Shown: positions 21,496 through 41,024, numbered from the stretch's first letter. The stretch: 64,000 nt of DNA from Escherichia coli (GCF_003790525.1 NZ_CP033635.1), one strand, 5' to 3'. Numbers and translations: made by a program. Notes: generated by a model from the sequence alone, not told the origin.

Positions 21496-21497
21496 GC

Positions 21498-22361: not shown

Positions 22362-22373
22362 GATTTCTTCACT

Positions 22374-23093: not shown

Positions 23094-23112
23094 GTTTATA
23101 TCCGCCTGGTGA

Positions 23113-23580: not shown

Positions 23581-23587
23581 ATTGCCT

Positions 23588-24957: not shown

Positions 24958-24961
24958 CGTC

Positions 24962-25354
24962 TTAACCCAGCTTGCCCGAAAGCCCTTCCCAGCCTTCACG
25001 CAGGTTGCTTAAGATCAGCATCACTTCATCGATTTTCTCTGCCGACAGTTCGCCACTGGCTTCATACAAGCGATACACGCAGTGGTCATAGAGGCGAGAA
25101 AGATTCACCACCAGCTCGCCACCGGTTTCAAACTCCAGCGAACTGGTGAGCGCATTGAGAATGTCGATGCATTTATTGATGCTCTGGGCTTTCTTCTCGA
25201 AACGCCGCCCTTCAATGTGGCTTCTGGCGCGTTCCAGCTCGTCCATCAGGCCAGAAAACAGCACCAGCACCAGTTCAAGAGGCGATGCCGCAGCGGTACG
25301 CGCCGCGAGATCGACCTCTTTGTATTGCGAATAGCCATCCTGTACTTGGTACAT
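24962..25354 (-). CDS. lafC: Flagellin-specific chaperone (FliS homolog)
   Basis: 130-aa translation MYQVQDGYSQYKEVDLAARTAAASPLELVLVLFSGLMDELERA... is FliS-like. Confidence 0.85.
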   Translation of the reverse strand: MYQVQDGYSQYKEVDLAARTAAASPLELVLVLFSGLMDELERARSHIEGRRFEKKAQSINKCIDILNALTSSLEFETGGELVVNLSRLYDHCVYRLYEASGELSAEKIDEVMLILSNLREGWEGLSGKLG

Positions 25355-25376
25355 CTTTAGGGATATTCCTTCTGAG

Positions 25377-26693
25377 TTACGCGAATGCCGCCATGCTGGC
25401 TTTCATGGTGTACACCTCAACCAGCGTGTTGGTGTACTCCTCCAGATAACGGTCGTAGTTGGCGTTATAGGTATCGGTAAGCTGATCGCCTTCGTCCTGA
25501 ATTTTGCTCATCTGATCGTCAATGTTCTGCTGGCGCAGGGTGATGATGCCGTTGCTGGAGTCGGTATAGGTGTCAATAAGGCTGTCCATCTGCGCCACCA
25601 TGCTGTTATCGCCGACGAAAATAGAGGTCAGGCCGTCGGGATCGCTCTTCATCGCGTCGTTGAACTGGTCTGAATCAATCTGTAAATGGCCGTGAGAATC
25701 GAGCGTAATGCCATAGTCGACAATCGACACGCCGTTGTAGCTGGCATGGGCGATGTCATCGAGCTGGTTTGCCAGTGAGCTGAGTCCGGCGTCGCCTGCA
25801 AATACCCCGGCGCTGGTACTGTCATCACCGTGGGTGGTCAGCGAATCAACCGTATCAATCAAGGTGTTATATGCATCGACAAAGGTCTGTACTTTCTCCT
25901 GGCTGGCGCTGGAATCTTCGCTGATGTTAAAGGTAGTGAGATCGCTGTCAGAATCGCTGACTTCGGTGAAAGTCATGGTGACGCCGGGGATCACATCATC
26001 AAAGGTATTGCTGCTATTAGTGATCTCTGGCCCCGTGGCGCTGCCGAGATGAATAATCGCGTCCTGGGCGGAGGAAACATCCGTAGCAACAGGCGCGCTG
26101 GCGCTGTCGTTGCTGGCGTCATGCCCCGTTACGCTCACCGAAAATGCGCTCTGCGCCCCGGTGCTATCGGAGGTGAGCATAATCGTGGTGGTGCCGTCGG
26201 TTTTTACCAGTGCCGCCGACACGCCCGGATTGTCATCAGAGTCGTTAATCGCATTCACCAGTTCACTGGCGTCGATAAAACCGTCGCCGTCACCGTTTTG
26301 ATCCGCCGCCGACAGATCGATATCCATGGTGCTGCCGCCCATCGTCAGTTCGAAGGTGCCGGTAGCGGAAAAGGCGTCGTCGCCCATACTGAACGTGGTT
26401 TGCTGCCCCTGTGCCAGTTGCTCAACGAAAAATGAGTAGCTTCCCGCCTGCGCCTGGGAATTGGCGGAAACGGTCGCCGAGTCATTATTGCTGGTGGCGG
26501 CAAACGTCACCGGGCCGTCAGTATCGCTGTTCAGCGCGTCAACGGCGCTCTGAAAATCGCTCAACGCTGAGCTGAGCGAGTCCAGGCCGCTGCTTTCCGC
26601 ATCCAGCTCGCTCTGCTTCTCCTGCAAGTTTGCCGCCTGAGTGGCAACATCCGCATAGGCGATTTCTTGCGCAATGGTTCTTGGGTTGATCAT
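25377..26693 (-). CDS. lafB: Flagellar filament cap protein (FliD homolog)
   Basis: 438 aa with FliD-like N- and C-terminal heptad regions. Confidence 0.85.
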   Translation of the reverse strand: MINPRTIAQEIAYADVATQAANLQEKQSELDAESSGLDSLSSALSDFQSAVDALNSDTDGPVTFAATSNNDSATVSANSQAQAGSYSFFVEQLAQGQQTTFSMGDDAFSATGTFELTMGGSTMDIDLSAADQNGDGDGFIDASELVNAINDSDDNPGVSAALVKTDGTTTIMLTSDSTGAQSAFSVSVTGHDASNDSASAPVATDVSSAQDAIIHLGSATGPEITNSSNTFDDVIPGVTMTFTEVSDSDSDLTTFNISEDSSASQEKVQTFVDAYNTLIDTVDSLTTHGDDSTSAGVFAGDAGLSSLANQLDDIAHASYNGVSIVDYGITLDSHGHLQIDSDQFNDAMKSDPDGLTSIFVGDNSMVAQMDSLIDTYTDSSNGIITLRQQNIDDQMSKIQDEGDQLTDTYNANYDRYLEEYTNTLVEVYTMKASMAAFA

Positions 26694-26725: not shown

Positions 26726-26740
26726 GCAAAAGGCGTGCCA
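26726..26740 (-). promoter_or_regulatory. Sigma-54 (-24/-12) promoter upstream of lafB
   Basis: Minus strand reads TTGGCACgccttTTGCC, i.e. GG-N10-GC matching TGGCAC-N5-TTGC; predicted start ~20 nt upstream of the lafB ATG, with GGAG RBS in between. Confidence 0.5.
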
Positions 26741-26828
26741 ATAATTTTTATGTGAATAATCAATAAATTGAAAAAGGGGCGGAAATGGTGTTTCCGGTCT
26801 GGCGGAAAAAAGCCTGCCGCTGAAAGCA

Positions 26829-26854
26829 CAACACCGCCCGCAGGCGGTGTTGTT
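26829..26854 (-). terminator. Stem-loop downstream of lafA
   Basis: ACAACACCGCC-cgc-AGGCGGTGTTGT inverted repeat about 45 nt after the lafA stop, next to a REP element. Confidence 0.4.
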
Positions 26855-26898: not shown

Positions 26899-27813
26899 TT
26901 ACTGCAGCAGGCTGGAAACCATGCTGGACATGCTGTTGGACTGTTTCAGCATGGTGATGCCGGTCTGCATCAGCACCTGCTGTTTAGTCATGTTGGACGC
27001 TTCCGTCGCGTAGTCGGTATCCATAATGTTACCGATAGCGACTTCGGTGTTGTCCTGCATACTGGTCAGGTTATTAGCGGTGTCGTTCAGACGGTTGATA
27101 GACGCCCCCAGCTTGGACTGGATCTGCGAAACATCATCCATCGCGGTAGAAATGCTGGTGATCATCTGGTTAGCCGAGCCAGACGCAGTCAGCTCAGTAC
27201 CGCCAGAAACGCCTGCGGTGCCAGTGGTGTCAGCCTGATCCGCACTGAAGGAGTTGCTGATAGCAGAAAGATCCGTCACCAGGGTATTCAGCTGGCTTGA
27301 AATATTCACGGTCATGGTGTCGGAAGATTCCGCGCCCACCTGGAAAGTTACTGCGCTCTGGAACAGACCGTCAGTACCGGTGTTGCTGGTACCGGAAACA
27401 CCGAACAGGTTGGTGCCGCCGTAAGTGGTGTTTTGCAGCATGTCAGACATCTGCTGACCCAGTTCATCGTATTCGTCCTGCATCGCCTGCAGATCGTCGT
27501 CGCTGTAGGTGCCGTTCGCTGCCTGAGTTGACAGGTCTTTCATACGACCCAGCACATCAGACATTTCGTCGAACATGCTGTCAGCGGTTTGCAGCATCGC
27601 GGTGGCATCATTGATGTTGCTCAGCGCCACACCCATACCGCTGGACTGTGCTGTCAGACGGTTAGCAATTTGTTTGCCTGCGGCGTCATCGGCAGAAGAG
27701 TTAATCCGGTTACCCGTTGCCAGGCGTTCCATAGATGTAGACAGAGAAGAGCTGCTTTTACTGATTGCATTAACGGCGGCCATTGAGGCGTTATTGGTGT
27801 TAATAGATAACAT
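26899..27813 (-). CDS. lafA: Lateral flagellin
   Basis: Translation from MLSINTNNASMAAVNAISKSS... has conserved flagellin N- and C-terminal domains (ends ...MSSMVSSLLQ); AGGAG RBS upstream of ATG 27813. Confidence 0.9.
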   Translation of the reverse strand: MLSINTNNASMAAVNAISKSSSSLSTSMERLATGNRINSSADDAAGKQIANRLTAQSSGMGVALSNINDATAMLQTADSMFDEMSDVLGRMKDLSTQAANGTYSDDDLQAMQDEYDELGQQMSDMLQNTTYGGTNLFGVSGTSNTGTDGLFQSAVTFQVGAESSDTMTVNISSQLNTLVTDLSAISNSFSADQADTTGTAGVSGGTELTASGSANQMITSISTAMDDVSQIQSKLGASINRLNDTANNLTSMQDNTEVAIGNIMDTDYATEASNMTKQQVLMQTGITMLKQSNSMSSMVSSLLQ

Positions 27814-27858
27814 GATACTGCTCCTTGGGATTAATCGTTTTCGTTTCGATACCCTGTA

Positions 27859-27885
27859 AAAACGACACCTCAGGAGCAAACTTAA
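27859..27885 (-). promoter_or_regulatory. Candidate sigma-28-type (LafS-dependent) promoter upstream of lafA
   Basis: Minus strand reads TTAAGTTT-N11-GTCGTTTT about 45 nt upstream of the lafA ATG; shares a motif with sites upstream of lfgK and lfgM. Confidence 0.3.
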
Positions 27886-28299
27886 AATCGCCGTTAAAAT
27901 TTTTTCGCCACGTATTATCCGATGCCACTTTTAGCTAAAAAAAAGCAGAGTTTAAATTCAGATAAAAAGATTATTAGCAATATCTGCCACATGGCCAGGT
28001 ATCAAAATATGTCTTTATCAAATGCTTGATATAGTTAAGATTGTCATCAATTATCGCGTTTTGTTCTCAATGTACTGATGCCAAAATTTACATTGCGTTG
28101 CAAATAGTACACATTTGGCTATTGTACCTGTCCTGTCATTTCGTTACATTTCCACGCCATATAGTGATTAAGAATAATCCTATTACCATAAAATATTAAT
28201 TATCACGCAGAAAAATCATCTTCTCAGGGACGTATAAGACTGTGCTTTATGCAAAGCACTATCAGGAAACATTTATCCCTTGCTAAGGTAAACTCAACT

Positions 28300-29142
28300 A
28301 TGAGTATTATTATCAACAACTGGCGGATGGACCCGTCGCTTAATGCCTTAATACATTGCGAAACGGGTGAAACACGTCGTCTCGGCGAATACCATTTTAT
28401 TTTGCTGGAAACATTAGCAAAAAATGCCGATGTGGTTTTATCGCGATCTTATTTATGTGCCGAAGTATGGAAGAACCGCATAGTCGGCGGTAACAGCCTG
28501 CCGACGGCGATCCATGCGTTGCGCGTTGCTATCGACGATGATGGCAAACAACAGAACATTATTAAAACAATTCCGAAGAAAGGTTACTTGTGCAATAAAG
28601 AGTATGTGTCTTTGCCGGAGTCATCGCCTGCAGAAGCGCTGATTATTACCGACCAGATACAAGATACAGCCCCAGAAGAGATATCTTCGACAACACCGCC
28701 TGTACCTGTTAGAAAAAAACATAAAGGACTGATGGGGTTAGCGTTGACCGCGGCTGTTATATTTATTGGCTCGACCGTGGGGTATTCACACTTGAAAAGT
28801 ACACCTGACGCCCCGCAACTGGTAAAAGAGTCAATTAACAGTCCAAGAATAAAAATATTTCATCTTAGTTCTGGAAAGGAAAATAATTCCGTACCGTTAC
28901 TGTCACAAACCCTCGAACCAGGAAAAGACAAACTCGATAATTTATTGTCAGCGCATAATATGACAATGACAACCTATTATAAATATGTTCGTAACCGACT
29001 GGAAAGCGATATTGTTCTGCGTAACCAGTGCAACGGCAGCTGGCAATTAACCTTTAATGTGGAAGGTTGGCAGAACAGCGATATTAATAGCGCGATGTAT
29101 CAGAATTTGGAGAAGTTGTTAAATACTGTGCAGAAATGCTGA
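28300..29142 (+). CDS. lafZ: ToxR/CadC-like transmembrane transcriptional regulator
   Basis: N-terminal winged-helix DNA-binding domain (…LGEYHFILLETLAKNADVVLSRSYLCAEVW…IKTIPKKGY), one transmembrane segment (GLMGLALTAAVIFIGSTVGY), periplasmic C-terminus. Start could also be the ATG at 28249. Confidence 0.7.
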   Translation: MSIIINNWRMDPSLNALIHCETGETRRLGEYHFILLETLAKNADVVLSRSYLCAEVWKNRIVGGNSLPTAIHALRVAIDDDGKQQNIIKTIPKKGYLCNKEYVSLPESSPAEALIITDQIQDTAPEEISSTTPPVPVRKKHKGLMGLALTAAVIFIGSTVGYSHLKSTPDAPQLVKESINSPRIKIFHLSSGKENNSVPLLSQTLEPGKDKLDNLLSAHNMTMTTYYKYVRNRLESDIVLRNQCNGSWQLTFNVEGWQNSDINSAMYQNLEKLLNTVQKC

Positions 29143-29157
29143 TGAGTGCCAATATAT

Positions 29158-29194
29158 GCCGGATGCGACGCTAAACGCGTCTTATCCGGCCTAC
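29158..29194. repeat. REP element
   Basis: GCCGGATGCGACGCTAAACGCGTCTTATCCGGCCTAC. Confidence 0.5.
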
Positions 29195-29200
29195 CGATAA

Positions 29201-30178
29201 TTACCCCAATAAATTCCTCACCGTCTGGCTGGAAATTCGCGCCTGACCGTTCACAGCCTGCAATAAAACCTGATAGTTATGATTGGCGCTATCAAGCACG
29301 CCGCCGAGGTTTTCCGACGCCTGCACCGCGTTTTCCGTTTGCGGGAAGCGGGACATGCCGTCGATCAATTGGCGGGCTTTTTCCTGCTGCACCGCCATCT
29401 GCGCGCGCTGCTGATTAATGTTTTCCAGCATTTGAGAAATCCCCGCCCCGCCCTGTTGCAGGCTTTGCGCTAAGCGGTCCGCCTGTGACGGCTCGGCAAA
29501 GGTTTTCAGCGGCATAAATGCTGATTTATCGCCATCGGTGCGCACGCTTAAGCTGCGCTCGATGTCAGGCCACTGTTTTTCAGTGGTGGAGAAACTGATG
29601 CCATCCGCTTGCTGATGTACCTGCACGCCCACGCGGCGCAGAGCGTTGGTCAGCCGCGTCTGGTACTGCGCGGCGTTGTCATCCTCAGACAGCATCACCG
29701 CCGAAAGCTGAGTCTGCCGCCCGTCAGAGACGCTGAACATGCGCGTTCCCGGCGTGGGATTGTGTACCAGATTCGTCAGATCCGGCGAGTGAAAAGTCAC
29801 CCGCGCTTCCCCCTGCAACACTGGCTGCAACTGGCGGTCCACCGCGCCGCCGGAAAGCGCGGTGCGTTTGTCCAGCATCTGCATCAGCGCTGAACTCTGC
29901 GCCTGCCCGCCCTTACGCTGGCTGTGACGGTAATCGAGCAACTGCTGTTCCAGTTGCCCGAGATAGTGATCCGCCTGCTGCAACGTGGTGAGCTGATCGT
30001 TAAGCTGCACACTGTAACGCTGCGGGCGAGTGGTAATCAGCGGCGAGGCCGGATATTCACTCGCCGTCGCCGGGAGTTTTTGCCGCACCGCCTGAGTGGG
30101 CGCAACGGTTGACGACGATACCGCAGCGCTATGCGCGCCGCCGGTGGCGAGTGATGAAGATGTAAGTCCGACCTGCAT
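29201..30178 (-). CDS. lafW: Flag-2 protein LafW (putative hook-associated/flagellar protein)
   Basis: 325-aa Gln-rich ORF immediately downstream of lfgL in the same operon; assignment follows Flag-2 gene order rather than a recognised motif. Confidence 0.65.
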   Translation of the reverse strand: MQVGLTSSSLATGGAHSAAVSSSTVAPTQAVRQKLPATASEYPASPLITTRPQRYSVQLNDQLTTLQQADHYLGQLEQQLLDYRHSQRKGGQAQSSALMQMLDKRTALSGGAVDRQLQPVLQGEARVTFHSPDLTNLVHNPTPGTRMFSVSDGRQTQLSAVMLSEDDNAAQYQTRLTNALRRVGVQVHQQADGISFSTTEKQWPDIERSLSVRTDGDKSAFMPLKTFAEPSQADRLAQSLQQGGAGISQMLENINQQRAQMAVQQEKARQLIDGMSRFPQTENAVQASENLGGVLDSANHNYQVLLQAVNGQARISSQTVRNLLG

Positions 30179-30194
30179 ACGGTTCCTGAAAGAG

Positions 30195-31124
30195 TTAGAG
30201 AACGCTGAATAAATTCAACTCACTCACTTTCGAGTAAGTCTTGAGGGTAGCTTCCATTGCCACTTCCAGTCCGGTAAAGGTGATCGACGCCGGGCCGTAA
30301 TCGAGATCCTGTAAAGAACCAATCAACTCATCATTAGAGGTAGAAATATCGGTCTGCGCATCGCTCAGCATCGACATGGTGTTCTGCGTCTCGCCAAGCG
30401 ACGCAATCGAGGCGTTGAGATCGTCCGAAGCGGTATCCACCACATCAACGGCGTTCTGAAGATCGCTCTGCACCTGCGGATCTGCCGGATCGACGTCCGG
30501 GTTTTGCAGCTCCTGCGACAGGGAATTAAGGGTGTTGAGCACGTCTAAATTACTGCCGAAGAAATCGCTCGCCGCCACGTTGGTGTCCACTTCCACGCCG
30601 TTCGACACGGTGGTCTGGCGGTGATCGCTGTTGCCCTGGTAGCTGTAGCTGTCGGTCACGCCGTCGCCGTCATCGTCCACCGCCACAATCGGCGGCTGAT
30701 CGTTGATGGTACCGCCAAACACGTAATGCCCGTCTTCGTCCTGATAATTGAGCGCCGCCACCATCGATTCGGTGAGCGACTGAATATCCTGCCCGAGGCT
30801 TGCGAGCGAATCAGCGGTATTGGTGCCGTTCGCCGCTTCCAGCAGGTCGTCGCGCACCGCCAGCAGGCTGTTGTTGACGCCATCGAGAATCGACTCCTGC
30901 TGGCTTAACCCCGCCGACGCAGAGTCAATATTGCTTTGATACTGCTCAATCGCCGACTGCTGGCGGTTCAACTGGGTGATACGCGTGGCGGCGATCGGGT
31001 CATCCGACGGCTGCAAAATTTCCTTGCCGGTTGCCATCTGCTCGACCACATGCGCCAGAGAGCCGGAGAGATTATTAAAACTTTGCGTCATCGAGACGTA
31101 GGTTTGTTGGGTGGTTACTCGCAT
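30195..31124 (-). CDS. lfgL: Hook-filament junction protein (FlgL homolog)
   Basis: Flagellin-like N- and C-terminal helices; start at ATG 31124 (GGGAG RBS) rather than the overlapping ORF-track start. Confidence 0.85.
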   Translation of the reverse strand: MRVTTQQTYVSMTQSFNNLSGSLAHVVEQMATGKEILQPSDDPIAATRITQLNRQQSAIEQYQSNIDSASAGLSQQESILDGVNNSLLAVRDDLLEAANGTNTADSLASLGQDIQSLTESMVAALNYQDEDGHYVFGGTINDQPPIVAVDDDGDGVTDSYSYQGNSDHRQTTVSNGVEVDTNVAASDFFGSNLDVLNTLNSLSQELQNPDVDPADPQVQSDLQNAVDVVDTASDDLNASIASLGETQNTMSMLSDAQTDISTSNDELIGSLQDLDYGPASITFTGLEVAMEATLKTYSKVSELNLFSVL

Positions 31125-31138
31125 TTTCGCGCTCCCGC

Positions 31139-32515
31139 TTAGCTGCACATTTCCAGCACCGAATCGAAAATCTCGGCCCCGGCGGAAATGACTTTCAGAT
31201 TAGCTTCATAAATTTGTTGATAGGTGATCAGGTTCACCGCTTCTTCGTCCATGCTGACGCCGCTGACGCTGCTCTGCTGGTTTTGCGCCTCAGAATAAAC
31301 ATTGGACGCGGCATCGACTTCCGTCTGGTTTTGCTGGCTGTAAATGCCGATGTTGCTGATGATCGACGAGCACGCCTGCCCGACCGTCACGCTGCCAAGG
31401 TTGGCTATCTCCAGCGGTTCGGTGGAGATGTTGATCAGCGCCTGAAGGTTGTCGCTGTTACCGCTTTCATCCGGCGAACTGGAGAACGCCAGCTCATCGG
31501 CGGTGATATCCGGGTTAACGGTCAGCGGGCCATCGGCGTTGCTGGCGTCATAAATAAACAGCGGCTCGCCGGGGTTACCGTTGAGATCGTAGCCCTGCGC
31601 CAGCTGGTTGTTGACCGCATCGGCAAACTGCAACGCCATGCTGTTGATGGTGTCGGTCAGCGGCGTCAGCACGTCGTTTTGATAATCAAACAGTGCGCCT
31701 AATGAACCGCCGGTGTCGGTAGTCATCGTCGAGGTGGTGCCAGCGAAAGTCAGCGACATGGTCGGCGTGCCATCGGCGTTGGTTTCCAGCGCGATGGTCG
31801 AGCTTTGCTGCCCGCTCACCAGCGGTTGACCGTTTTTCAGGGTGACGTTGTAGTTGCCCTGGTCGTCGATATTGACCTGCACATCCATCATCCCGCTCAG
31901 TTCTTCCACCATCTGATCGCGGGCGTCGTACAGCGCGGAGGCGTTATCGCCGTTGGCTTCGGCCTGGGCGATTTGCTGGTTATAGCTGGCGATGCCGCTG
32001 GTAAGCGTGTTGATTTGCGACACCATTGCCTGCTGCTGGCTGATGATTTCCGTGCTTTGCGAGTCGATGTAATCCAGCGTGTTGTCGATACGCAACGACA
32101 GCGCCCCGGCTTCGCTGATCACCTGTTCGCGCAGGGCGGAATCATCGGGGCTGGTGGTCGCTTCGTTGAGGGCGGCGAAGAAGTTATCGAAGCCGACGCT
32201 CAGGCTGCTGTTATCGTCGCTCAGTACCGCTTCCAGTTGCGTGAGATACCCCTGCTGGGTGCTGTAATAGCCGTAATCGCTGGCGGCATACCACACCTGA
32301 TTCACCTGATACTGGTTAGAGACGCGGCGAATGCTGTCGACCTGCACGCCGTTACCGGCGCTGTTCGGCGAACCACCGCTGGCGCCGATGGTGCTGATCT
32401 CCGCCACCTGACGGGTGTAGCCCGTGGTCATGGCGTTGGCGGTGTTTTGCGCCGTGACGTTCAGCTCTACCTGCGCGGTTGATGCGCCGCTGTAGCCGAT
32501 GTTAATCATGTCCAT
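31139..32515 (-). CDS. lfgK: Hook-associated protein 1 (FlgK homolog)
   Basis: 458 aa; N-terminus ...INIGYSGASTAQVELNVTAQNTANAMTTGY and C-terminus ...LITYQQIYEANLKVISAGAEIFDSVLE are FlgK-like. Confidence 0.9.
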   Translation of the reverse strand: MDMINIGYSGASTAQVELNVTAQNTANAMTTGYTRQVAEISTIGASGGSPNSAGNGVQVDSIRRVSNQYQVNQVWYAASDYGYYSTQQGYLTQLEAVLSDDNSSLSVGFDNFFAALNEATTSPDDSALREQVISEAGALSLRIDNTLDYIDSQSTEIISQQQAMVSQINTLTSGIASYNQQIAQAEANGDNASALYDARDQMVEELSGMMDVQVNIDDQGNYNVTLKNGQPLVSGQQSSTIALETNADGTPTMSLTFAGTTSTMTTDTGGSLGALFDYQNDVLTPLTDTINSMALQFADAVNNQLAQGYDLNGNPGEPLFIYDASNADGPLTVNPDITADELAFSSSPDESGNSDNLQALINISTEPLEIANLGSVTVGQACSSIISNIGIYSQQNQTEVDAASNVYSEAQNQQSSVSGVSMDEEAVNLITYQQIYEANLKVISAGAEIFDSVLEMCS

Positions 32516-32547
32516 GTTGGATCCTTACCGGTAAATCGTGCCGGTTA

Positions 32548-32575
32548 AAAGCGGCGTGAAGATGGGGAATCTTAA
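32548..32575 (-). promoter_or_regulatory. Candidate sigma-28-type (LafS-dependent) promoter upstream of lfgK
   Basis: Minus strand reads TTAAGATT-N12-GCCGCTTT about 30 nt upstream of the lfgK ATG. Confidence 0.3.
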
Positions 32576-32595
32576 GTTCCGTAAACCGGGTGCCA

Positions 32596-32920
<325 letters not shown>

Positions 32921-32935
32921 CCGAACGTCGGAGCC

Positions 32936-33235
32936 TCATTTATGCTTCGGCGACAACTGCTTCACAATCATCGCCGCAATCCCAATCCCGTGCTGCTGCG
33001 CCAGGGTGTTACACAACTCATCGTCATAAAACCCCTGCATCATGCGCACCGAATCGCTGTTAAACGGGTTATCTTTCGAATCAAACAACTCGTTGGTTTT
33101 ACGCATCTCTTTCAGCATGTTGCGTAAAAAAATCGCCTCAAACTGCTCCGCGGCCTGCTTAATATCATTGGCCTGAACCTTCGGCCCCATTAACGCATCG
33201 CTGCCATCAATCCCGCCGCTGGCGTTCACTTTCAT
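32936..33235 (-). CDS. lfgJ: Rod-binding protein (FlgJ N-terminal domain homolog)
   Basis: 99 aa with FlgJ rod-binding-like sequence; ATG overlaps the lfgI stop. Confidence 0.75.
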   Translation of the reverse strand: MKVNASGGIDGSDALMGPKVQANDIKQAAEQFEAIFLRNMLKEMRKTNELFDSKDNPFNSDSVRMMQGFYDDELCNTLAQQHGIGIAAMIVKQLSPKHK

Positions 33236-34335
33236 CAGATCACCTCCAGGTCGGCATCCAGCGCGCCCGCCTCATGCAGCGCCTGTAAAATCGACATAAT
33301 GTCGTCCGGCGTCGCGCCCAAACTGTTCAACGCATTGACCAGCGTTTTCAGGCTGCTCGACTCCGGCAAACTCACCACGCCCGGGCGCGCATGATTCACC
33401 GCGATATTGCTCTGCGGCGTTACCGCCGTGCGCCCGCCTGCAAAGGCATTCGGCTGGCTGACGTTGCTGGTTTCGTTAATCGAGACGGTCAAACTGCCGT
33501 GCGACACCGCCGCCGCATGCAGCGCAACGCCATCGCCCATCACCACCGTGCCGGTACGCGAGTTAAACACCACGCGGGCGCGGATTTTCTCTGCCTGCAC
33601 CTGTACATCATCCAGTTGCGACATAAATGCCACCCGCGCGCCGGGGCTGGTGGGCGCGCGCACGCTGACGTTGGTGGAGCTCTGCGCAGTAGCAATGCCG
33701 CCAAACGAGGCATTAATCGCCGCCGCAATATTGTTGGCATCTTTAAACGACGGACGTTTCAGGTTGAGGGTGATAGTGTCGCCCATCTGAAAATCGCTGG
33801 GGATCTCGCGCTCTACCGTTGCGCCGTTAGGAATTAACCCGGCGGTTGGCGTATTAACCGTTACGCTCGAACCGCTGGCCCCGGTGGCATTCATCCCGCC
33901 CACCACCACGCTGCCCTGCGCCAGGGCATACACTTCGCCATCCGCGCCGTGCAACTGGGTCAGCAACAAAGTGCCGCCACGAATACTTTTGGCATCGCCA
34001 ATCGACGAAACGGTGACATCAATGGTCTGCCCGCGCGAGTACATCGGCGGCAGCGTGGCGCTCACCGCCACCGCGGCGACGTTTTTCACCTTCGGGTCGA
34101 TTTTATTCGGCAGTTGCACGCCAAACTGGCGCAGCATATTGGTGATGGTCTGGTTGGTGAATTTGACCTGGTTTTTATCGCCCGTGCCGTCGAGGCCGAC
34201 CACCAGGCTGTAGCCGACCAGTTGGTTTTCACGCACGCCCTGTACGTTGACCAGCGATTCCAGCGATTGCGCCAGCGCCACGCCAGGTAGCGCCAGGCTC
34301 ACGGTGATTACTGCGGCCTTTATCCAGTTTTGCAT
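33235..34335 (-). CDS. lfgI: Flagellar P-ring protein (FlgI homolog)
   Basis: Signal peptide [22 protein letters not shown] then FlgI-like sequence; start at ATG 34335 with GGAGAG RBS. Confidence 0.9.
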
Positions 34336-34349
34336 TGCACTCTCCGGCA

Positions 34350-35014
34350 TTAAATCGGGAACAGAGGATGGTTAAACAGCCGCGTCAACCAGCCTGCGGC
34401 GTTGGCGTCGCTTAACGCGCCGCGTCCGGCATAGGAGATGCGGGCATCGGCGATCCGCTGGGAGGAAACCGAGTTGTCGTTCTGGATGTCGTCGGCGCGC
34501 ACCAGGCCGCTTAAGCGGATGTACTCATCGCCCTGGTTGAGGGTCAGCCATTTTTCGCCGCGAATTTCCAGGATGCCGTTAGGCTGCACCGCATGGACGG
34601 AAACGGTGATCTCCCCGCGCAGGCTGTTCTGCTGCTGGGAAGTGGCACTGCCGTCAAAGTCGCGGTTGGCGTCGATAGAGCCGGAAAGCTTATCTTTGGT
34701 GTGTCCAAAAATCGTTGGCGCGCCGATATCGACGGTGTTGCTTTTGCCGAAGTTGGTTTTCGCCTGTTTGCTCGACTGGGTGGATTCTTCGAGGATCACC
34801 GTCAGGATATCGCCCACGCGGTAAGCCCGCCGGTCGGCAGTTAGCGACCAGTTGTAGCCGGTTTCAAACACGCCCCCGGCACGCCCGTCTGCCGGAGGCG
34901 GCGCTTCGGTGGTTGGTGGCGCAAAGTATGCGTCGTCTTTTTTGACCAGAATGGCCTGCGATTCACACCCGCTAAGCAGGGGAAGCAGCGCCACCAGCCA
35001 GAGATAATTTTTCA
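34350..35014 (-). CDS. lfgH: Flagellar L-ring lipoprotein (FlgH homolog)
   Basis: Lipoprotein signal (LLPLLSGC) and FlgH-like body. Start placed at GTG 35014; the longer ORF-track start translates the upstream REP element. Confidence 0.8.
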
Positions 35015-35052
35015 CGTTCTGCCTGTTTAAATACAGTGAGTTATGTGCTCTT

Positions 35053-35090
35053 GTAGGTCGGATAAGACGTGTCAGCGTCGCATCCGACAT
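35053..35090. repeat. REP element
   Basis: GTAGGTCGGATAAGACGTGTCAGCGTCGCATCCGACAT. Confidence 0.5.
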
Positions 35091-35097
35091 TTCGGCC

Positions 35098-35883
35098 TTA
35101 CAGCGTCTGACTGATGTACTGCAACATATCGTCCGCAGCCGACACCATTTTGGCGTTCATCTCGTACGCCCGTTGCACCGTAATCATCGCCACCATCTCG
35201 TTGACGATATCCACGTTCGAGCCTTCGAGCGCGTTGTCCTGCAAGGTGCCAAGCCCATCTTCGCCCGGTACGCCTTCGGTCGGCTGACCGCTGGCAGCGG
35301 TTTCCAGATACAGGTTGTCGCCCTCGGCGGAAAGCCCCGCCGGGTTAGCGAAGTTCACCAGTGTCAGTTGCCCTAACTCGGTCACATCGCTGTCGCCGGG
35401 TAAGATCGCCGTCACCGTGCCGTCCTCACCAAACGCAACGTTAGTCGCCCCCGCCGGAACGTCGATTTCCGGTTGTAACGGCAAACCCTGCGAGTTAGTC
35501 AACACGCCGTCGGCGTTCACCTGCAAGTTGCCATCGCGGGTATAGGCGATATCGCCGTTAGCCTTTTGCACCTGCAAAAATCCCTGTCCCATAATGGCGA
35601 CATTCATGGCGTTGTCGGTGGTCTCAACGTTGCCTTCGGTGAAGGTTTTCTGGGTACCGACAATGCGTACGCCGCTCCCGAATTGCAGCCCGGTCGGCAT
35701 GATGTTGTTCTGGTCGAGCATCGCGCCCGGCGCTTCCTGGGTCTGGTAGAACAGATCCTGAAACATCACCCGATCGCGCTTGAAGCCGGTGGTGTTAACG
35801 TTGGCGATGTTGTTGGCAATCGCGCTCATTTCAGCATCCTGCGCCGAGAGGCCGGTTTTGCTGATCCATAGTGCTGCGTTCAT
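35098..35883 (-). CDS. lfgG: Flagellar distal rod protein (FlgG homolog)
   Basis: 261 aa; N-terminus MNAALWISKTGLSAQDAEMSAIANNIANVNTTGFKRDR and C-terminus ...ITVQRAYEMNAKMVSAADDMLQ are FlgG-like. Confidence 0.9.
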   Translation of the reverse strand: MNAALWISKTGLSAQDAEMSAIANNIANVNTTGFKRDRVMFQDLFYQTQEAPGAMLDQNNIMPTGLQFGSGVRIVGTQKTFTEGNVETTDNAMNVAIMGQGFLQVQKANGDIAYTRDGNLQVNADGVLTNSQGLPLQPEIDVPAGATNVAFGEDGTVTAILPGDSDVTELGQLTLVNFANPAGLSAEGDNLYLETAASGQPTEGVPGEDGLGTLQDNALEGSNVDIVNEMVAMITVQRAYEMNAKMVSAADDMLQYISQTL

Positions 35884-35915
35884 GGTGGTAAATTCCGTGT
35901 TATTTTTGGGCCGCA

Positions 35916-35952
35916 GTTGCCGGATGCGGCGTGAACGCCTTATCCGGCCTAC
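35916..35952. repeat. REP element
   Basis: GTTGCCGGATGCGGCGTGAACGCCTTATCCGGCCTAC. Confidence 0.6.
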
Positions 35953-35961
35953 GATGTGCGG

Positions 35962-36699
35962 TTACGAGCCGCGCAATAAGCGGTTGCCCGCGTCGCTGAT
36001 ATCTTCGGCTGTTTTCATCATCTTGATCTGCGCTTCAAACTGGCGGTTCATGGCGATGGACGACATCATTTCGCTCACCGCCGAGACGTTGCTGCCTTCG
36101 AGAAAACCGCCGCTGACTTTGATGTTTTCATCGCGCTGGGCCGGAATGCCGTCGCTAGTCACCAGCATCCCTTCAGGATTTTTCGCCAGGTTAGCGACCG
36201 GGATATCCACCAGCTTCAGGCGGTCGATATCCATCGTGGCGGTCACGTCGCCGTCATCAGGCGTCACCGACAGCGTGCCGTCGCTGCCAAACGAGGCAAT
36301 GGCGTTCGGCGGCAGAATGATCGGGCCGTTATCCCCCAGCACCAGATTGCCGTCGATGGTCAGTTGCCCCTGATCGTCCTGCTGAATGTTGCCGTTGCGG
36401 GTATAGACTTCGTTGCCGTTTTTATCCTGCACCGCAATGTAACCCGCGCCCTGAATCGCCACGTCCAGCGGGCGTTCGGTTTTCTCCGCCACACCCGTGC
36501 TGTCGTTCACGCCGCTGGCCCCTTCCTGCGCCATATAGCGAGTGTCGAAGCCGCCGCCTTTCACCTTGTCATTGGTCGCCATTGCCATATCGGCGCGAAA
36601 ACCGTTGGTGTTGACGTTCGCCAGGTTGTTGGCGCTAATCTGCTGCTCATACAACGTCTGAGAAGCCCCGCTCAGGGCGGTATAAATCAAGCGATCCAT
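35962..36699 (-). CDS. lfgF: Flagellar proximal rod protein (FlgF homolog)
   Basis: 245 aa with rod-family N-terminus (…ANNLANVNTNGFRAD) and C-terminus. Confidence 0.9.
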   Translation of the reverse strand: MDRLIYTALSGASQTLYEQQISANNLANVNTNGFRADMAMATNDKVKGGGFDTRYMAQEGASGVNDSTGVAEKTERPLDVAIQGAGYIAVQDKNGNEVYTRNGNIQQDDQGQLTIDGNLVLGDNGPIILPPNAIASFGSDGTLSVTPDDGDVTATMDIDRLKLVDIPVANLAKNPEGMLVTSDGIPAQRDENIKVSGGFLEGSNVSAVSEMMSSIAMNRQFEAQIKMMKTAEDISDAGNRLLRGS

Positions 36700-37901
36700 T
36701 ACATTGCCCGGAACAGCGCGTCATCGAGCTGCGTGCTGGTGGCGATCACTTTGGTGTTGGCCTGATAGTTACGCTGGGCGGTCATCAGGTTGACTAACTC
36801 GCTGGTGATATCGACGTTAGAGCTTTCGAGCACGCCCGACGACAGCGTGCCGCAGGAACCGGAGCCGGGAACGCCAATCAGCGGCGTGCCGGATTCCCCA
36901 GTTTGTACCCACGCGGTGCCGCTCACCGCTTCGAGTCCGTTTTCATTCGGGAAAGTCGCCAGCACCACCTGGCCCTGCAACATGCGCTCGCCGTTGCTGT
37001 AGGTAGCGTAAACTTTGCCATCGTCATCGACCTGCACACCGTTTTGCGTAGCGGAGGCGTAGCCGTTGGCGGCGTTGGTGGTGACCGAAAATTCAGAGCC
37101 GTATTGCGTACAGGTGGAGTAATCGACGGTTAAGTCGATGGGTGCGGCGGCGTCGGTCTGAAACTCAATGGTCTGCGGCGTGGTTGGCGAAGTCAGCTTC
37201 CCGGTGTTCGGGTCGAAGGTTAACGTCGTCGCCGGAACGCCGGTCTGCTGCTGACCGTCGAAGGTGTACTGCACTTCCCAGGTGTTGTCGCTGGTTTTGG
37301 TGAAGTACTGGCATACCGAGTGTTCGTTACCTAATGAGTCGTACACCGTGGTGGTGTAGCTGTCGGTATACGAGCTGCTGTTGGTCGCGTCGAACGGTAC
37401 GGTAGTGCGGTCGATAGCGTCGTCGCTGGCATCGAAGTTGGCGGTAAAGGTCAGGCTGCTGCTGGCCTGCGCCGGAATATTGCCAGTTTTGATCTGGATA
37501 TCGGTGACTGTACCGGTTTGCAGAGTGCCCGTGTCATCGACCGGATAGCCCTGCAAATAAGCGCCTGAGGCGTTGACGATATAGCCGTTTTTGTCGGTTT
37601 CAAACGATCCGGCGCGGGTATAAGAAATGTTGCCCGCGCTGTCGCAGGTAACAAAAAAACCGTCGTCGTTAATCGCCAGATCCAGCGCGTTACCGGTGGA
37701 TACCAGCGAACCGCCGCGCGAAATACTTTGCGCGGTGCCTGCCACGCTGACGCCCATCGCCTGACTTCCGGCATACATGGCTGAAAACTGGGTGGTCATC
37801 GACTTATAGCCTACCGTTCCGGCGTTGGCGATGTTGTTACTGATCCCGTCCAGCTGTTCGTTAACGGCATTCAGCCCCGTTGCGGCAATTTCATAACTCA
37901 T
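36699..37901 (-). CDS. lfgE: Flagellar hook protein (FlgE homolog)
   Basis: 400 aa with FlgE-like termini (N ...ISNNIANAGTVGYK; C ...LVNLMTAQRNYQANTKVI). Confidence 0.9.
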   Translation of the reverse strand: MSYEIAATGLNAVNEQLDGISNNIANAGTVGYKSMTTQFSAMYAGSQAMGVSVAGTAQSISRGGSLVSTGNALDLAINDDGFFVTCDSAGNISYTRAGSFETDKNGYIVNASGAYLQGYPVDDTGTLQTGTVTDIQIKTGNIPAQASSSLTFTANFDASDDAIDRTTVPFDATNSSSYTDSYTTTVYDSLGNEHSVCQYFTKTSDNTWEVQYTFDGQQQTGVPATTLTFDPNTGKLTSPTTPQTIEFQTDAAAPIDLTVDYSTCTQYGSEFSVTTNAANGYASATQNGVQVDDDGKVYATYSNGERMLQGQVVLATFPNENGLEAVSGTAWVQTGESGTPLIGVPGSGSCGTLSSGVLESSNVDITSELVNLMTAQRNYQANTKVIATSTQLDDALFRAM

Positions 37902-37923
37902 TGTTTCTTCCTGTTAATTGTTC

Positions 37924-38637
37924 TTACGCCACATCACTGTCGGCATCGGGTACGCCAAACTGGCTAATCATGGTGAACGGCACTTCACCTACACCGGCAA
38001 CGTTAAGTACCGGGGAGCTGCCGTCGAGCGGGATGCGCACATCTTCCACTTCGCCGGAGACTTCAATCGGCACCTCTTCTTCCCCGGTGTTGGTCACCAC
38101 CGAGACGTCGTAATCGCCCGGCGGGATACCGTAATCCGCGGGATTCACCGAGAAATCCACCTGGCCTGGCCCGACGGACGAACTCCCTTCCGGGATCAGC
38201 GACACCGTATAGTCATCGCCTGCGGCATCGGTAAAGTGGAGATCGGCGGTGGTACAGGCGTCGTCAAGCGTGGCGCGACCGTTAATGGTCTGGTCACTCA
38301 CCTGCAAGGCGGTGGTCTGCACCATAATGTCGTCGCCCACCAGGTTGCCGAGCGCCATCACCTGAATGTTGCTCATCAACACCGCGTTGGTATTCGCCTG
38401 CACGCTCATCTCTTCCATCATCGCCACCTGCGCCATTGACGAAAGCTGGTCGATATATTCGGTGGCGTCAGTCGGGTCGGTCGGGTCCTGGTTTTGGATC
38501 TCAGCGACAAACAGCGTCAGGAAGGTATCGACGGGCGAGCTATCGCTGCTGCTTGTCGTGTCGCTGGCCGCCACATTATTGCTTTCCGGCGTGGCGGTCG
38601 GCTGCGGTGATTGCGCATTCAGCGCCAGGGTATTCAT
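37924..38637 (-). CDS. lfgD: Hook-capping/assembly protein (FlgD homolog)
   Basis: 237 aa with FlgD-like N-terminal region (…DTFLTLFVAEIQNQDP…); position between flgC and flgE homologs. Confidence 0.85.
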   Translation of the reverse strand: MNTLALNAQSPQPTATPESNNVAASDTTSSSDSSPVDTFLTLFVAEIQNQDPTDPTDATEYIDQLSSMAQVAMMEEMSVQANTNAVLMSNIQVMALGNLVGDDIMVQTTALQVSDQTINGRATLDDACTTADLHFTDAAGDDYTVSLIPEGSSSVGPGQVDFSVNPADYGIPPGDYDVSVVTNTGEEEVPIEVSGEVEDVRIPLDGSSPVLNVAGVGEVPFTMISQFGVPDADSDVA

Positions 38638-39068
38638 CAGGCTTCTCCCAGTTTCAGCAGGCTTTGCTGCATACTTTTCACGTTGTTGAGCACATCGACG
38701 TTAGTTTCAAAATCGCGCGAGGCCGACATCATGTCCGCCATCTGTTCCACCACGTTGACGTCGGGATACCAGACATCCCCGTTAGCATCGGCGAGCGGCG
38801 AATGTGGTTCATAGCGTTTCACCGCCCCGCCGGTTTGCAGCACGTCCTGCACCTGCACACTGGCACCGTCAATGGCATGACGATGTGTACCCGCCAGCAA
38901 ACTGTGGTGATACACCGCCGCAAACACCGGGCTGCGCGCTTTATATGCCTGCGCCTCGCTGCTGGCGGGCGCATTAGCATTCGCCAGGTTACTGGCGACG
39001 GTATTCAGACGTAGCGTTTGCGCCGTCATCGCCGAGCCGGAAATCTGATAGATATCAGTAAATGACAT
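38637..39068 (-). CDS. lfgC: Flagellar proximal rod protein (FlgC homolog)
   Basis: 143-aa translation MSFTDIYQISGSAMTAQTLRLNTVASNLANANA... is FlgC-like. Confidence 0.9.
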   Translation of the reverse strand: MSFTDIYQISGSAMTAQTLRLNTVASNLANANAPASSEAQAYKARSPVFAAVYHHSLLAGTHRHAIDGASVQVQDVLQTGGAVKRYEPHSPLADANGDVWYPDVNVVEQMADMMSASRDFETNVDVLNNVKSMQQSLLKLGEA

Positions 39069-39070
39069 GC

Positions 39071-39406
39071 TTATTTCCCTTCAATGGCCTCTCTGATGCC
39101 GCTGATTTGCAGATTCAGAAAGGTCAGACTGCTTTGATAATCCATACTATTTTGTGAAAACCGCGCCTGCTCGCTGTTCAGCTCCACGGTGTTGCCATCT
39201 TCCGACGGCTGCATCGGCACGCGGTACTGGACATCCACCGCCGCGTTATTTGCCCGTTGCATCTCCCTGGCAAAATCAATATCTTTAGCCTTGAAATTTG
39301 GCGTATCGACGTTCGCCAGATTCGCAGTCAGTAGCTCGGTCCTCTCAAGACGTAACTTCACTGCCTGCGGATGCACTCCCAATGCCTGTTGAAAACTGAT
39401 CCCCAT
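39071..39406 (-). CDS. lfgB: Flagellar proximal rod protein (FlgB homolog)
   Basis: Start placed at ATG 39406 (MGISFQQALGVHPQAVKLRLERTELLTANLANVDTPNFKAKDIDF...), which aligns with the FlgB N-terminus and lies downstream of the predicted sigma-54 start site. Confidence 0.8.
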   Translation of the reverse strand: MGISFQQALGVHPQAVKLRLERTELLTANLANVDTPNFKAKDIDFAREMQRANNAAVDVQYRVPMQPSEDGNTVELNSEQARFSQNSMDYQSSLTFLNLQISGIREAIEGK

Positions 39407-39442
39407 TTCTTGCGTCACTCCCGCTTCAATCCGCATACGCTA

Positions 39443-39458
39443 AGCAATCGCTGTGCCA
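39443..39458 (-). promoter_or_regulatory. Sigma-54 (-24/-12) promoter of the lfgB operon
   Basis: Minus strand reads TTGGCACagcgaTTGCT, an exact fit to TGGCAC-N5-TTGC; predicted start ~26 nt upstream of the lfgB ATG. Confidence 0.55.
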
Positions 39459-39487
39459 ATTTTTAAGTGACTGATGAGAAAGGGTTT

Positions 39488-40225
39488 ATGAGTTTTCAAT
39501 TTTGCAGGCGGAAGTTTTATTTCCTCCTGGCGCTGGCCTTACCGGGCTACGCCGCCGTCCATCCCGTGCAACATAGCGCGCGGGAACAAATCAACGCCCA
39601 GGTACTGAATACCGCGAGCCAAAAAATTGAATCGCTGGCGCAGCAGCGGCAATGGCATGACTATCGCTACACCTTTAAGGTCTATATTCCGTCGCAGATT
39701 GCGACCGCCGCGCCCTGTACAACGTCACCCGGCGTCACGCTGACGTCGCCTGCGGAAATCGCCCTTAACCGGATGAACTTCACCGTCAGTTGCCCGCAAA
39801 GCTGGCAGATGAACGTCGCGGTGCGCCCGGATGTTCTGGTACCGGTGGTGATGGCAAAGTCACTGGTTGCCCGCGATACGCCGCTCACGGCAAATGATGT
39901 GGAGCTGAAGCCCTACAACGTCAGCGCCCAGCGTCGCGATGTGTTGATGGAGCTCGATGACGCAATTGGTTTAAGCAGTAAGCACGCGTTGCAACCGGGC
40001 AGACCAATCACCAAAGAAGAGCTGGTTTCGCCAGTGCTGGTCGAACGCGATCAGCCGGTGATGATTGTTTACCAGAGCGCGGGGATCACCGCCTCGATGC
40101 CCGGCGTGGCGCTGAAAAATGGTCGCAAAGGGGAAATGGTGAAAGTACGTAACGTCAGCAGCCAGCGGGTCATTAGCGCGAGGGTGGCGGAAAGCGGCGT
40201 GGTGACAACGGTAAGCGCGGAGTAA
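39488..40225 (+). CDS. lfgA: Flagellar P-ring assembly chaperone (FlgA homolog)
   Basis: Translation from MSFQFCRRKFYFLLALALPGYAAVHP... has a signal peptide and a FlgA-like C-terminal domain; divergent from lfgB. Confidence 0.8.
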   Translation: MSFQFCRRKFYFLLALALPGYAAVHPVQHSAREQINAQVLNTASQKIESLAQQRQWHDYRYTFKVYIPSQIATAAPCTTSPGVTLTSPAEIALNRMNFTVSCPQSWQMNVAVRPDVLVPVVMAKSLVARDTPLTANDVELKPYNVSAQRRDVLMELDDAIGLSSKHALQPGRPITKEELVSPVLVERDQPVMIVYQSAGITASMPGVALKNGRKGEMVKVRNVSSQRVISARVAESGVVTTVSAE

Positions 40226-40239
40226 TTTGCGCAGGCGAT

Positions 40240-40267
40240 TAAAGTTTTGCCGCCTGTTAACCGCTTT
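40240..40267 (+). promoter_or_regulatory. Candidate sigma-28-type promoter upstream of lfgM
   Basis: TAAAGTTT (exact sigma-28 -35 consensus) then N12 then ACCGCTTT, about 40 nt upstream of lfgM; the -10 half matches the lfgK candidate, not the classical GCCGATAA. Confidence 0.3.
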
Positions 40268-40304
40268 ACCGGAGTAACCCACCCAATACCGAGACGAGGT
40301 TACG

Positions 40305-40583
40305 ATGAAAATCACCCCGACGATGCCAGGCAATCGCCCGACAGCCACAATGGCAGGCTCCAGTCAGCCGCGCAAAAGCACGGCGACCACCGCCACGACG
40401 CTGAGCGCCGACGACATTACCCAGGCGGGATTGCAGTCTGCCCAGCAAACGCTGAACGACCAGCAAGAGAGCGATATCGACAGCGACAAAGTGGCGCAAA
40501 TGCAAGCGATGCTGGCGTCCGGCAGCCTGCAAGTGGACACCGAACAGTTAGCCAGCGACATGCTGAGTTTTTTCCAGAACTAA
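40305..40583 (+). CDS. lfgM: Anti-sigma-28 factor (FlgM homolog)
   Basis: 92-aa acidic, Gln/Ser-rich protein with a FlgM-like C-terminal helical region. Confidence 0.8.
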   Translation: MKITPTMPGNRPTATMAGSSQPRKSTATTATTLSADDITQAGLQSAQQTLNDQQESDIDSDKVAQMQAMLASGSLQVDTEQLASDMLSFFQN

Positions 40584-40595
40584 GAGGCCGATGAA

Positions 40596-41024
40596 GTGAG
40601 TATCCGGTTACAACAGGTGAAGGCGTTGTTGCAGGGCATTCGTGACGACGACGCACTGTACGATTCCCTGCGCGAACTTCTCCAGCGTCAGCGGATGTGC
40701 ATGATTCGCCGCGCCAGCGAAGATCTGCTGGCGGTAAACGACGAGATAACGCAGCACTATGAGCAGTTGCATGGGCATAGCCATCAGCGGCACAGCCTGC
40801 TGAAAATGCTTAATGTCAGTGTAAATCGTGACGGTCTGGCGCAGGTTTTTGCCTGGCTTCCGGCTGTGCAAAAAGCAGCAGCACAACAGTTGTGGCAACG
40901 CCTTGAGCAAAAAGCGGAACGCTGCAAAGCCTACAACGACAAAAACGGCGAGCTGTTGATTCGCCAGTATGAATTTATTCAGTCTTTTTTAGGCGGCGAA
41001 ACAGATTTTCTGTACCAGGAATAA
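40596..41024 (+). CDS. lfgN: Flagellar export chaperone (FlgN-like)
   Basis: 142-aa helical protein after lfgM, GTG start with AGAGG RBS. Confidence 0.7.
   Translation: MSIRLQQVKALLQGIRDDDALYDSLRELLQRQRMCMIRRASEDLLAVNDEITQHYEQLHGHSHQRHSLLKMLNVSVNRDGLAQVFAWLPAVQKAAAQQLWQRLEQKAERCKAYNDKNGELLIRQYEFIQSFLGGETDFLYQE

Follow-up and report, generated by a model that had tools for sequence, protein, structure and literature searches.

In the canonical flagellar system of Escherichia coli and Salmonella the late (class 3) genes are transcribed from FliA (sigma-28) promoters, TAAAGTTT-N11-GCCGATAA, found at fliC, tar, motA, flgK and flgM. These promoters combine a TAAAG-like -35 element with a long -10 element that starts with GCCG, and they fire when the anti-sigma factor has been exported. 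Lateral flagella have a three-tier hierarchy in which LafK and sigma-54 stand above a lateral sigma-28 (PMC4481668), a hierarchy that is also described by (PMC11242183). In the latter study, RNA-seq of Plesiomonas shigelloides showed that deletion of fliA_L, the orthologue of lafS, lowers fliC_L, flgMN_L and flgKL_L, and also the operon fliD...lafTU (PMC11242183). According to a review, Vibrio parahaemolyticus has no regulators common to its polar and lateral systems except RpoN (PMC3930126), and a comparative survey of the Flag-2 (lateral-type) clusters makes no mention of promoters (PMC6993521). Here we have analyzed a stretch of 64,000 nucleotides of E. coli (GCF_003790525.1, NZ_CP033635.1), called the window from here on, in which the whole Flag-2 cluster lies. 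We found that three sites located upstream of the lateral flagellin gene lafA, of lfgK and of lfgM are very probably the late (class 3) promoters of Flag-2, PlafA, PlfgK and PlfgM, and that they would depend on LafS, the sigma-28 paralogue encoded in the cluster.

The three sites had been spotted by eye in an earlier note on this DNA, which proposed that they could be the recognition motif of LafS. The strings were indeed there, at the same coordinates and strands and always on the coding strand of the downstream gene, and the gene names used (lafA, lfgK, lfgM) agree with the RefSeq annotation. As first described, the sites were:

27859-27885, minus strand: lafA site, TTAAGTTT-N11-GTCGTTTT, 46 nt upstream of the lafA ATG at 27813
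32548-32575, minus strand: lfgK site, TTAAGATT-N12-GCCGCTTT, upstream of the lfgK ATG at 32515
40240-40267, plus strand: lfgM site, TAAAGTTT-N12-ACCGCTTT, upstream of the lfgM ATG at 40305

The degenerate pattern drawn from them matches these three places only in the 128 kb that make up both strands of the window, which proves nothing alone because the pattern was derived from the sites themselves. For this reason we built a two-block weight matrix trained on 70 unique sites, all of them from non-Escherichia Flag-2 loci. When both strands of the window were scanned with this matrix, a kind of search that the earlier note had suggested, the three sites came out at the top of the ranking, with the following limits and parts:

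27858-27885, minus strand: PlafA, probable late promoter of the lateral flagellin gene (23.6 bits, rank 2 in the window); -35 TTAAG at 27885-27881, spacer of 14 nt, -10 GTCGTTTTT at 27866-27858; transcript start predicted near 27850-27853
27894-27906, minus strand: A/T tract GAAAAAATTTTAA, directly upstream of the lafA -35 element
32547-32575, minus strand: PlfgK, probable late promoter of lfgK-lfgL-lafW (28.3 bits, rank 1 in the window); -35 TTAAG at 32575-32571, spacer of 15 nt, -10 GCCGCTTTT at 32555-32547; transcript start predicted near 32539, at a conserved CA
40240-40268, plus strand: PlfgM, probable late promoter of the anti-sigma/chaperone operon lfgMN (19.9 bits, rank 3 in the window); -35 TAAAG at 40240-40244, spacer of 15 nt, -10 ACCGCTTTA at 40260-40268; transcript start predicted near 40275-40276, at a conserved TAA

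The -10 blocks end between 31 and 44 nt ahead of the start codons. In order to estimate the significance of the scores, we scanned simulated windows: matches of at least 19.9 bits are expected at 0.015 (order-1 Markov) to 0.10 (order-3 Markov) per window, and 28.3 bits was reached in 0 of 400. The fourth-best match of the window, at 358-386 on the minus strand (TTAAGAAT...GCCGCCCAA, 18.7 bits), is located between a hypothetical gene and an IS3 transposase. It probably arose by chance, given that it sits beside the IS3 element in an unrelated island and has no TTT core. The window covers the Flag-2 cluster of E. coli SMS-3-5 and is 100% identical to it, as seen in a 6-kb core of the finding, and most of this core is carried by 1258 of the 5426 complete E. 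coli genomes (approximately a quarter). In 122 kb of other DNA from SMS-3-5 a further match of 18.7 bits was found, antisense within fliZ. The matrix scan of the window found no LafS-type site before lafB, lafT, lafW, lafZ or the glycosyltransferase genes.

We have examined related clusters to find out how far the motif extends. Flag-2 is found in many Enterobacterales, and an alignment of LfgK relatives was used to fetch 56 related loci from species-representative genomes of Escherichia, Citrobacter, Pseudocitrobacter, Phytobacter, Pseudescherichia, Leminorella, Enterobacter, Dryocola, Mangrovibacter, Buttiauxella, Cedecea, Serratia, Budvicia, Vibrio, Shewanella and Burkholderia, together with some outgroups. 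Gene order is kept across these loci. Some 45 other species, which range from Citrobacter to Vibrio and Shewanella, have the motif TTAAG-N15(14)-G[C/T]CG[C/T]TTT[A/T] in front of lafA, lfgK and lfgM, and therefore the conservation at orthologous positions on which the earlier proposal hung is real. Upstream of lfgK, CTTAAG-N15-G[C/T]CG[C/T]TTT[A/T] was present in nearly every Flag-2 locus (46 loci), down to an LfgK identity of 43% in Vibrio, and the sequence around it cannot be aligned between loci. Upstream of lafA the -10 block reads GTCGTTTT[A/T], Shewanella and Vibrio included, and the motif is kept, out to these two genera, in 35 of the 37 loci with a lafA match of at least 35% identity. 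Before lfgM it is kept in 39-40 loci, 17 of which form a divergent clade outside the training set. In a seeded search the spacing was 15 nt in almost all the sites and 14 nt at the lafA sites of Escherichia and Shewanella. The distance from the end of the -10 block to the start codon was 28-70 nt in most loci; the longest distances, of about 110 nt, were those of Vibrio, Budvicia and two Shewanella lafA promoters.

Base by base, the 70 training sites were very uniform. The CG of the -10 block is invariant (70/70), its first base is G in 65 sites, and the base before CG is either C (34) or T (34). After CG there is C in 46 sites and T in 24, never a purine, followed by T in 67, 62 and 60 sites at the next three positions and by a last base that is A (42) or T (25). 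Thus the -10 halves are mutually alike, as the earlier note had it, with G[C/T]CG[C/T]TTT throughout and the classical GCCGATAA in none of the 70. Its match of the -35 halves to sigma-28 stands only in part: the three sites do resemble the canonical element, but the second position is T in 64 of the 70 sites, giving a family consensus of TTAAG and not TAAAG, and the TAAAG of E. coli lfgM is a minority variant. Besides the two blocks, information content was restricted to an A/T tract that precedes the -35 elements of lafA and lfgM and, where transcription is predicted to start, to two or three bases (CA in lfgK, TAA in lfgM, GTA in lafA); the spacer and flanks have practically none. In almost every locus the lafA promoter has this tract, of the form AAAAnTTTTT, 10-20 nt before its -35, and the lfgM promoters have it in a weaker form. 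In front of lafA it is likely an UP element.

The motif is also specific. Across the 1.06 Mb of related loci the matrix gave 134 matches of at least 16 bits, and 125 of them were located upstream of lafA, lfgK or lfgM, distributed as follows:

upstream of lfgK: 46 matches
upstream of lafA: 40 matches
upstream of lfgM: 22 matches
about 370 nt upstream of lfgN, before a divergent lfgM missed by tblastn and outside the training set: 17 matches
about 200-360 nt upstream of fliD_L, in Vibrio and Shewanella: 3 matches
elsewhere: 6 matches, several of them lafA or lfgM sites close to contig ends

As validation outside the training set we fetched, by means of their LafS-type sigma factor, 20.7-kb loci of Pseudomonas alcaligenes, Marinobacter hydrocarbonoclasticus and Cellvibrio polysaccharolyticus. 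In each of them the top matrix matches were directly upstream of flgM_L, the lateral flagellin gene and fliD_L, with the form TTAA[G/T/C]-N15-GTCGCCTT (GACGTTTT in Marinobacter). Since the motif precedes late genes here too, the pairing of a LafS-lineage sigma factor with this -10 element is family-wide. Every examined cluster with a LafS-type sigma gene has the motif, and it is absent from the Burkholderia-type clusters, where no lafS match was in range. Judging from the sequences compared, the range of the LafS lineage and its motif is from Enterobacterales to Vibrio, Shewanella, Pseudomonas, Marinobacter and Cellvibrio; V. parahaemolyticus was not among the 120 matches listed for the Vibrio LafS query.

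We then compared the sites with the FliA-dependent promoters of the primary system, Flag-1, in SMS-3-5. Its fli, flhDC, mot and che regions are found near 1.24-1.29 Mb (L059; NC_010498.1 1.235-1.29 Mb), a position inverted relative to E. coli K-12. The Flag-1 promoters were canonical, all with 14-nt spacing: tar has TAAAGTTT-N11-GCCGATAA, and the -10 elements are GCCGATAA for fliD and fliA, GCCGATAT for motA and GACGATAA for fliC ([G/A]CCGATA[A/T]-type). The Flag-2 sites share with them the general layout, a -35 of the same type (TTAAGTTT, TTAAGATT, TAAAGTTT) and the upstream edge of the -10 (GTCG, GCCG and ACCG, compared with GCCG). The placement is also the canonical one, before the flagellin gene, before flgK (after flgJ) and before flgM (just after flgA), and so would be the logic, with late genes released on export of the anti-sigma factor. 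In contrast, the canonical ATAA core with its -11 adenine is missing, and the part of the Flag-2 -10 expected to melt is [C/T]TTT[A/T]. Most Flag-2 sites have TTAAG at the -35 where the canonical promoters have TAAAG. The spacer from the pentamer to the G is 14 nt in the canonical promoters and in E. coli lafA, whereas it is 15 nt in lfgK, lfgM and 64 of the 70 orthologous sites. With the Flag-2 matrix the promoters of fliC, fliD, fliA, motA and tar scored 5.3 bits at most. Separated by block, tar gave +7.6 bits for the -35 and -6.2 bits for the -10, and therefore the -35 and GCCG are common to the two systems, which diverge in the next four or five bases. A canonical sigma-28 scan of all loci gave scattered matches, mostly in genes, and no positionally conserved GCCGATA before the Flag-2 late genes. 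The exception was the outgroup Thiohalobacter, with an FlgK about 30% identical to LfgK, in which TCAAG-N15-GCCGATAG occupies the same position before flgK.

The sigma factor itself differs consistently from FliA at several residues. LafS matches the FliA structures of E. coli and Pseudomonas aeruginosa with E values of about 1e-31, aligned over regions 2-4, and the sigma-28 complexes used in the comparison were open and initiation complexes of both species (PDB 9wsf/9wsm, 6pmi/6pmj). The LafS orthologues compared include those of Pseudomonas, Marinobacter, Cellvibrio, Ferrimonas and Photobacterium. Koo et al. (2009) reportedly assigned the reading of GCCG by FliA to D81, R84 and R91. These residues correspond to D87, R90 and R97 of P. 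aeruginosa, and their equivalents are kept in every LafS examined. In P. aeruginosa sigma-28, R97 reads the extended -10 and biochemical evidence is cited for D87 contacting the -12 G; its open complex has the -11 adenine flipped against the D66 backbone and stacked on Y76, and R101 and R104 contact the template backbone at -14 and -12, respectively (PMC12784957). D66, R101 and R104 are D60, R95 and R98 in E. coli. In all the LafS orthologues the loop that leads to the conserved aromatic reads RRY[G/P]..D..F, with G or P replacing D60, while R95 is replaced by Q and R98 by H; the loop is also one residue shorter in enteric and Vibrio LafS (RRYG-x-PDE, compared with RYDALQG in FliA). The altered positions correspond to residues that make or adjoin the -11 to -14 contacts in the P. 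aeruginosa open complex (PMC12784957), and it is reasonable to infer that the changed pocket matches the changed promoter base.

We propose that region 4 of LafS would read TTAAG and that the equivalents of D81, R84 and R91 would read G[C/T]CG, which follows after 15 nt (14 nt in E. coli lafA). The -10 would then melt at [C/T]TTT[A/T] in place of ATAA, which puts a pyrimidine at the position of the canonical flipped -11 adenine. This difference in the -10 probably holds the Flag-2 and Flag-1 late genes under separate control within one cell, and we infer that the Flag-2 late promoters are insulated from FliA. More tentatively, and with our opinion nearly balanced but leaning slightly against it, LafS/FliA_L might be a naturally orthogonal branch of sigma-28 in which an altered base-flipping pocket melts a pyrimidine-TTT core without a -11 adenine, insulating the two systems.

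The strongest competitor of LafS-dependent promoters is that these are ordinary sigma-28 promoters that FliA reads alongside or instead of LafS, their unusual -10 being tolerated degeneracy. The common -35 block and G[C/T]CG, the cross-scoring of the -35 blocks (as in tar) and the identity of the GCCG-reading residues in LafS and FliA are what this explanation would predict. We consider it unlikely all the same, because in 70 of 70 training sites GYCG is followed by a pyrimidine and never by the adenine flipped in sigma-28 open complexes (PMC12784957). The deviation is conserved in about 45 species plus three further orders, and is therefore selected rather than the product of drift, and a canonical GCCGATAA site was found at no Flag-2 late gene. 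The lack of common regulators other than RpoN reported for the polar and lateral systems (PMC3930126) also fits separate promoter specificities.

The lafB and lfgB operons carry another type of promoter. The genes and the sigma-54 promoters of the window (genes from the RefSeq annotation, window coordinates being those of our locus L001 plus 6999) are:

20572-26693, minus strand: lafU, lafT, lafS and lafF to lafB
22374-23093, minus strand: lafS, the Flag-2 sigma-28 paralogue, annotated as a FliA/WhiG family sigma factor
26726-26740, minus strand: sigma-54 promoter of lafB, TGGCACGCCTTTTGC (TGGCAC-N5-TTGC)
26899-27813, minus strand: lafA, lateral flagellin gene
28300-29142, plus strand: lafZ
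29201-32515, minus strand: lafW, lfgL and lfgK, the operon lfgK-lfgL-lafW downstream of PlfgK
32936-39406, minus strand: lfgJ to lfgB
39444-39458, minus strand: sigma-54 promoter of lfgB, TGGCACAGCGATTGC (TGGCAC-N5-TTGC)
39488-40225, plus strand: lfgA
40305-41024, plus strand: lfgM (anti-sigma-28) and lfgN (chaperone), downstream of PlfgM
52268-53254, minus strand: lafK

No pseudogenes of the Flag-2 cluster are flagged in the RefSeq annotation of the window. The sigma-54 promoter of lafB is conserved in all the related loci, out to Shewanella and Vibrio. Having sigma-54 promoters, lafBCDEFSTU (which contains lafS) and the lfgB-J operon are class 2. TGGCAC-N5-TTGC is not present at the three late sites, and the cluster divides cleanly between sigma-54 operons, lafS included, and the three that have the sigma-28-like motif. 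An inverted repeat, CCGGAAAC-N4-TTTCCG (26780-26797, minus strand), precedes the sigma-54 promoter of lafB by about 55 nt and was also flagged by a terminator scan; GGAA/TTCC repeats occur at the matching position before lafB in other genera, and it may be a LafK enhancer site.

The sequence of events suggested by this arrangement is that sigma-54 promoters before lfgB and lafB, presumably activated by LafK, would drive the hook-basal-body genes and lafBCDEFSTU, including lafS itself. LfgM would keep LafS inactive until the hook-basal body is complete. LafS, once freed, would fire PlafA, producing flagellin, and PlfgK, producing the hook-filament junction proteins and LafW. It would also fire PlfgM, producing more anti-sigma factor and chaperone in a feedback loop. 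The split into sigma-54 and sigma-28-like operons is the hierarchy of the lateral flagella of V. parahaemolyticus, Aeromonas hydrophila and P. shigelloides, systems that have class 3 genes dependent on the lateral sigma-28 (LafS/FliA_L) and that were defined genetically, whereas E. coli Flag-2 is described here by sequence alone. The Vibrio loci of our sample share the motif. Moreover, the FliA_L-dependent fliC_L, flgMN_L and flgKL_L of P. shigelloides are the orthologues of the three motif-bearing operons of E. coli. The proposal that the motif is recognized by LafS is supported, given its presence in all the examined LafS-type clusters, its confinement to three late operons and this orthologous regulon.

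The two blocks could also be something other than promoters, either binding sites of another regulator (LafK or the ToxR-like LafZ, for instance) or an element that works in the RNA. LafZ deserves mention since its gene stays beside lafA even in Pseudomonas and Cellvibrio. It encodes a ToxR-like, membrane-anchored regulator with a Trans_reg_C-type domain and adjoins the lateral flagellin gene upstream, divergently in E. coli and on the same strand in Pseudomonas and Cellvibrio (L062 13127-13957; L064 13003-13869). Still, two blocks that both look like sigma-28 elements, with a fixed 15-nt spacer that is not conserved in sequence, a fixed orientation and a distance of 28-70 nt (to about 110) from the start codon, have the geometry of a promoter, and the promoters of the sigma-54/LafK type sit at other operons. 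At the RNA level, the lafA leader had no significant structure compared with shuffles (z = +1.06) and Rfam gave nothing at the three sites. We find this explanation very improbable. The only Rfam hits were two elements derived from repetitive extragenic palindromes (naRNA4, 75 and 88 bits; 32652-32846, minus strand), which occupy the lfgJ-lfgK intergenic region just upstream of PlfgK. This region is unusually long in E. coli; the promoter directly adjoins the lfgJ end, or overlaps it, in the majority of the other genera. No sigma-70-like match (TTGACA-N16-18-TATAAT) overlapped the three sites, and such matches numbered 14 in the region, compared with 9.9 +/- 3.1 expected. Finally, a chance likeness in A/T-rich intergenic DNA, a natural suspicion when there were only three sites spotted by eye and with background matches of up to 18.7 bits, is refuted and deserves practically no credence: the independent matrix ranks the sites 1-3 where the Markov simulations expect 0.015-0.10 per window, 125 of the 134 strong matches are at the three late genes, and dozens of species have kept the sites at their orthologous positions between diverged flanks.

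Some points weigh against regarding the three sites as LafS-dependent promoters. Flag-2 of E. coli is commonly considered cryptic. With 19.9 bits, the E. coli lfgM site (ACCG) scarcely exceeds the best background match (18.7 bits); being only marginal by score, it draws its main support from where it lies and from the orthologous loci, in which it is conserved. The start-site register of the -10 was assumed from the spacing to the -35, and the dependence on LafS is deduced from co-occurrence and from orthologous regulons in other genera. Lastly, in P. shigelloides fliD...lafTU is FliA_L-dependent as well (PMC11242183), whereas its E. coli equivalent shows a sigma-54 promoter only. A LafS-type site precedes the fliD_L operon of Vibrio, Pseudomonas and Cellvibrio, compared with sigma-54 only at the lafB of enterobacteria, E. 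coli included. The LafS-type sites are located about 170-360 nt upstream of fliD_L (loci L062, 6038-6066; L064, 5978-6006; L037, 16815-16843; L038, 15385-15413), and the class assignment of the fliD_L/lafB operon seems to differ between lineages.

Regarding the extent of the late transcription units, a GC-rich hairpin followed by a T-rich tail is found about 48 nt past the lafA stop codon (26822-26851, minus strand) and is kept across the enterobacterial loci. Because of this conserved structure, lafA appears to be a single-gene unit terminated at the hairpin. Within the lfgK-lfgL-lafW operon the gaps are just 14-16 nt.

A search of the full-text literature found no statement of a LafS -10 consensus, and older papers on Vibrio and on E. 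coli 042 may list similar sequences. With PlafA, PlfgK and PlfgM as its probable late promoters, Flag-2 gains a concrete regulatory code for its late genes, and its regulon becomes predictable genome by genome. The code also offers a simple account of how two sigma-28 paralogues could coexist without cross-firing, by means of a shared -35 and GCCG and a different melted core. If true, a group 3 sigma factor with a -10 element that has no -11 adenine would be a natural test of the role of the flipped-base pocket in specificity, and LafS with its promoters could serve as a ready-made orthogonal sigma/promoter pair.

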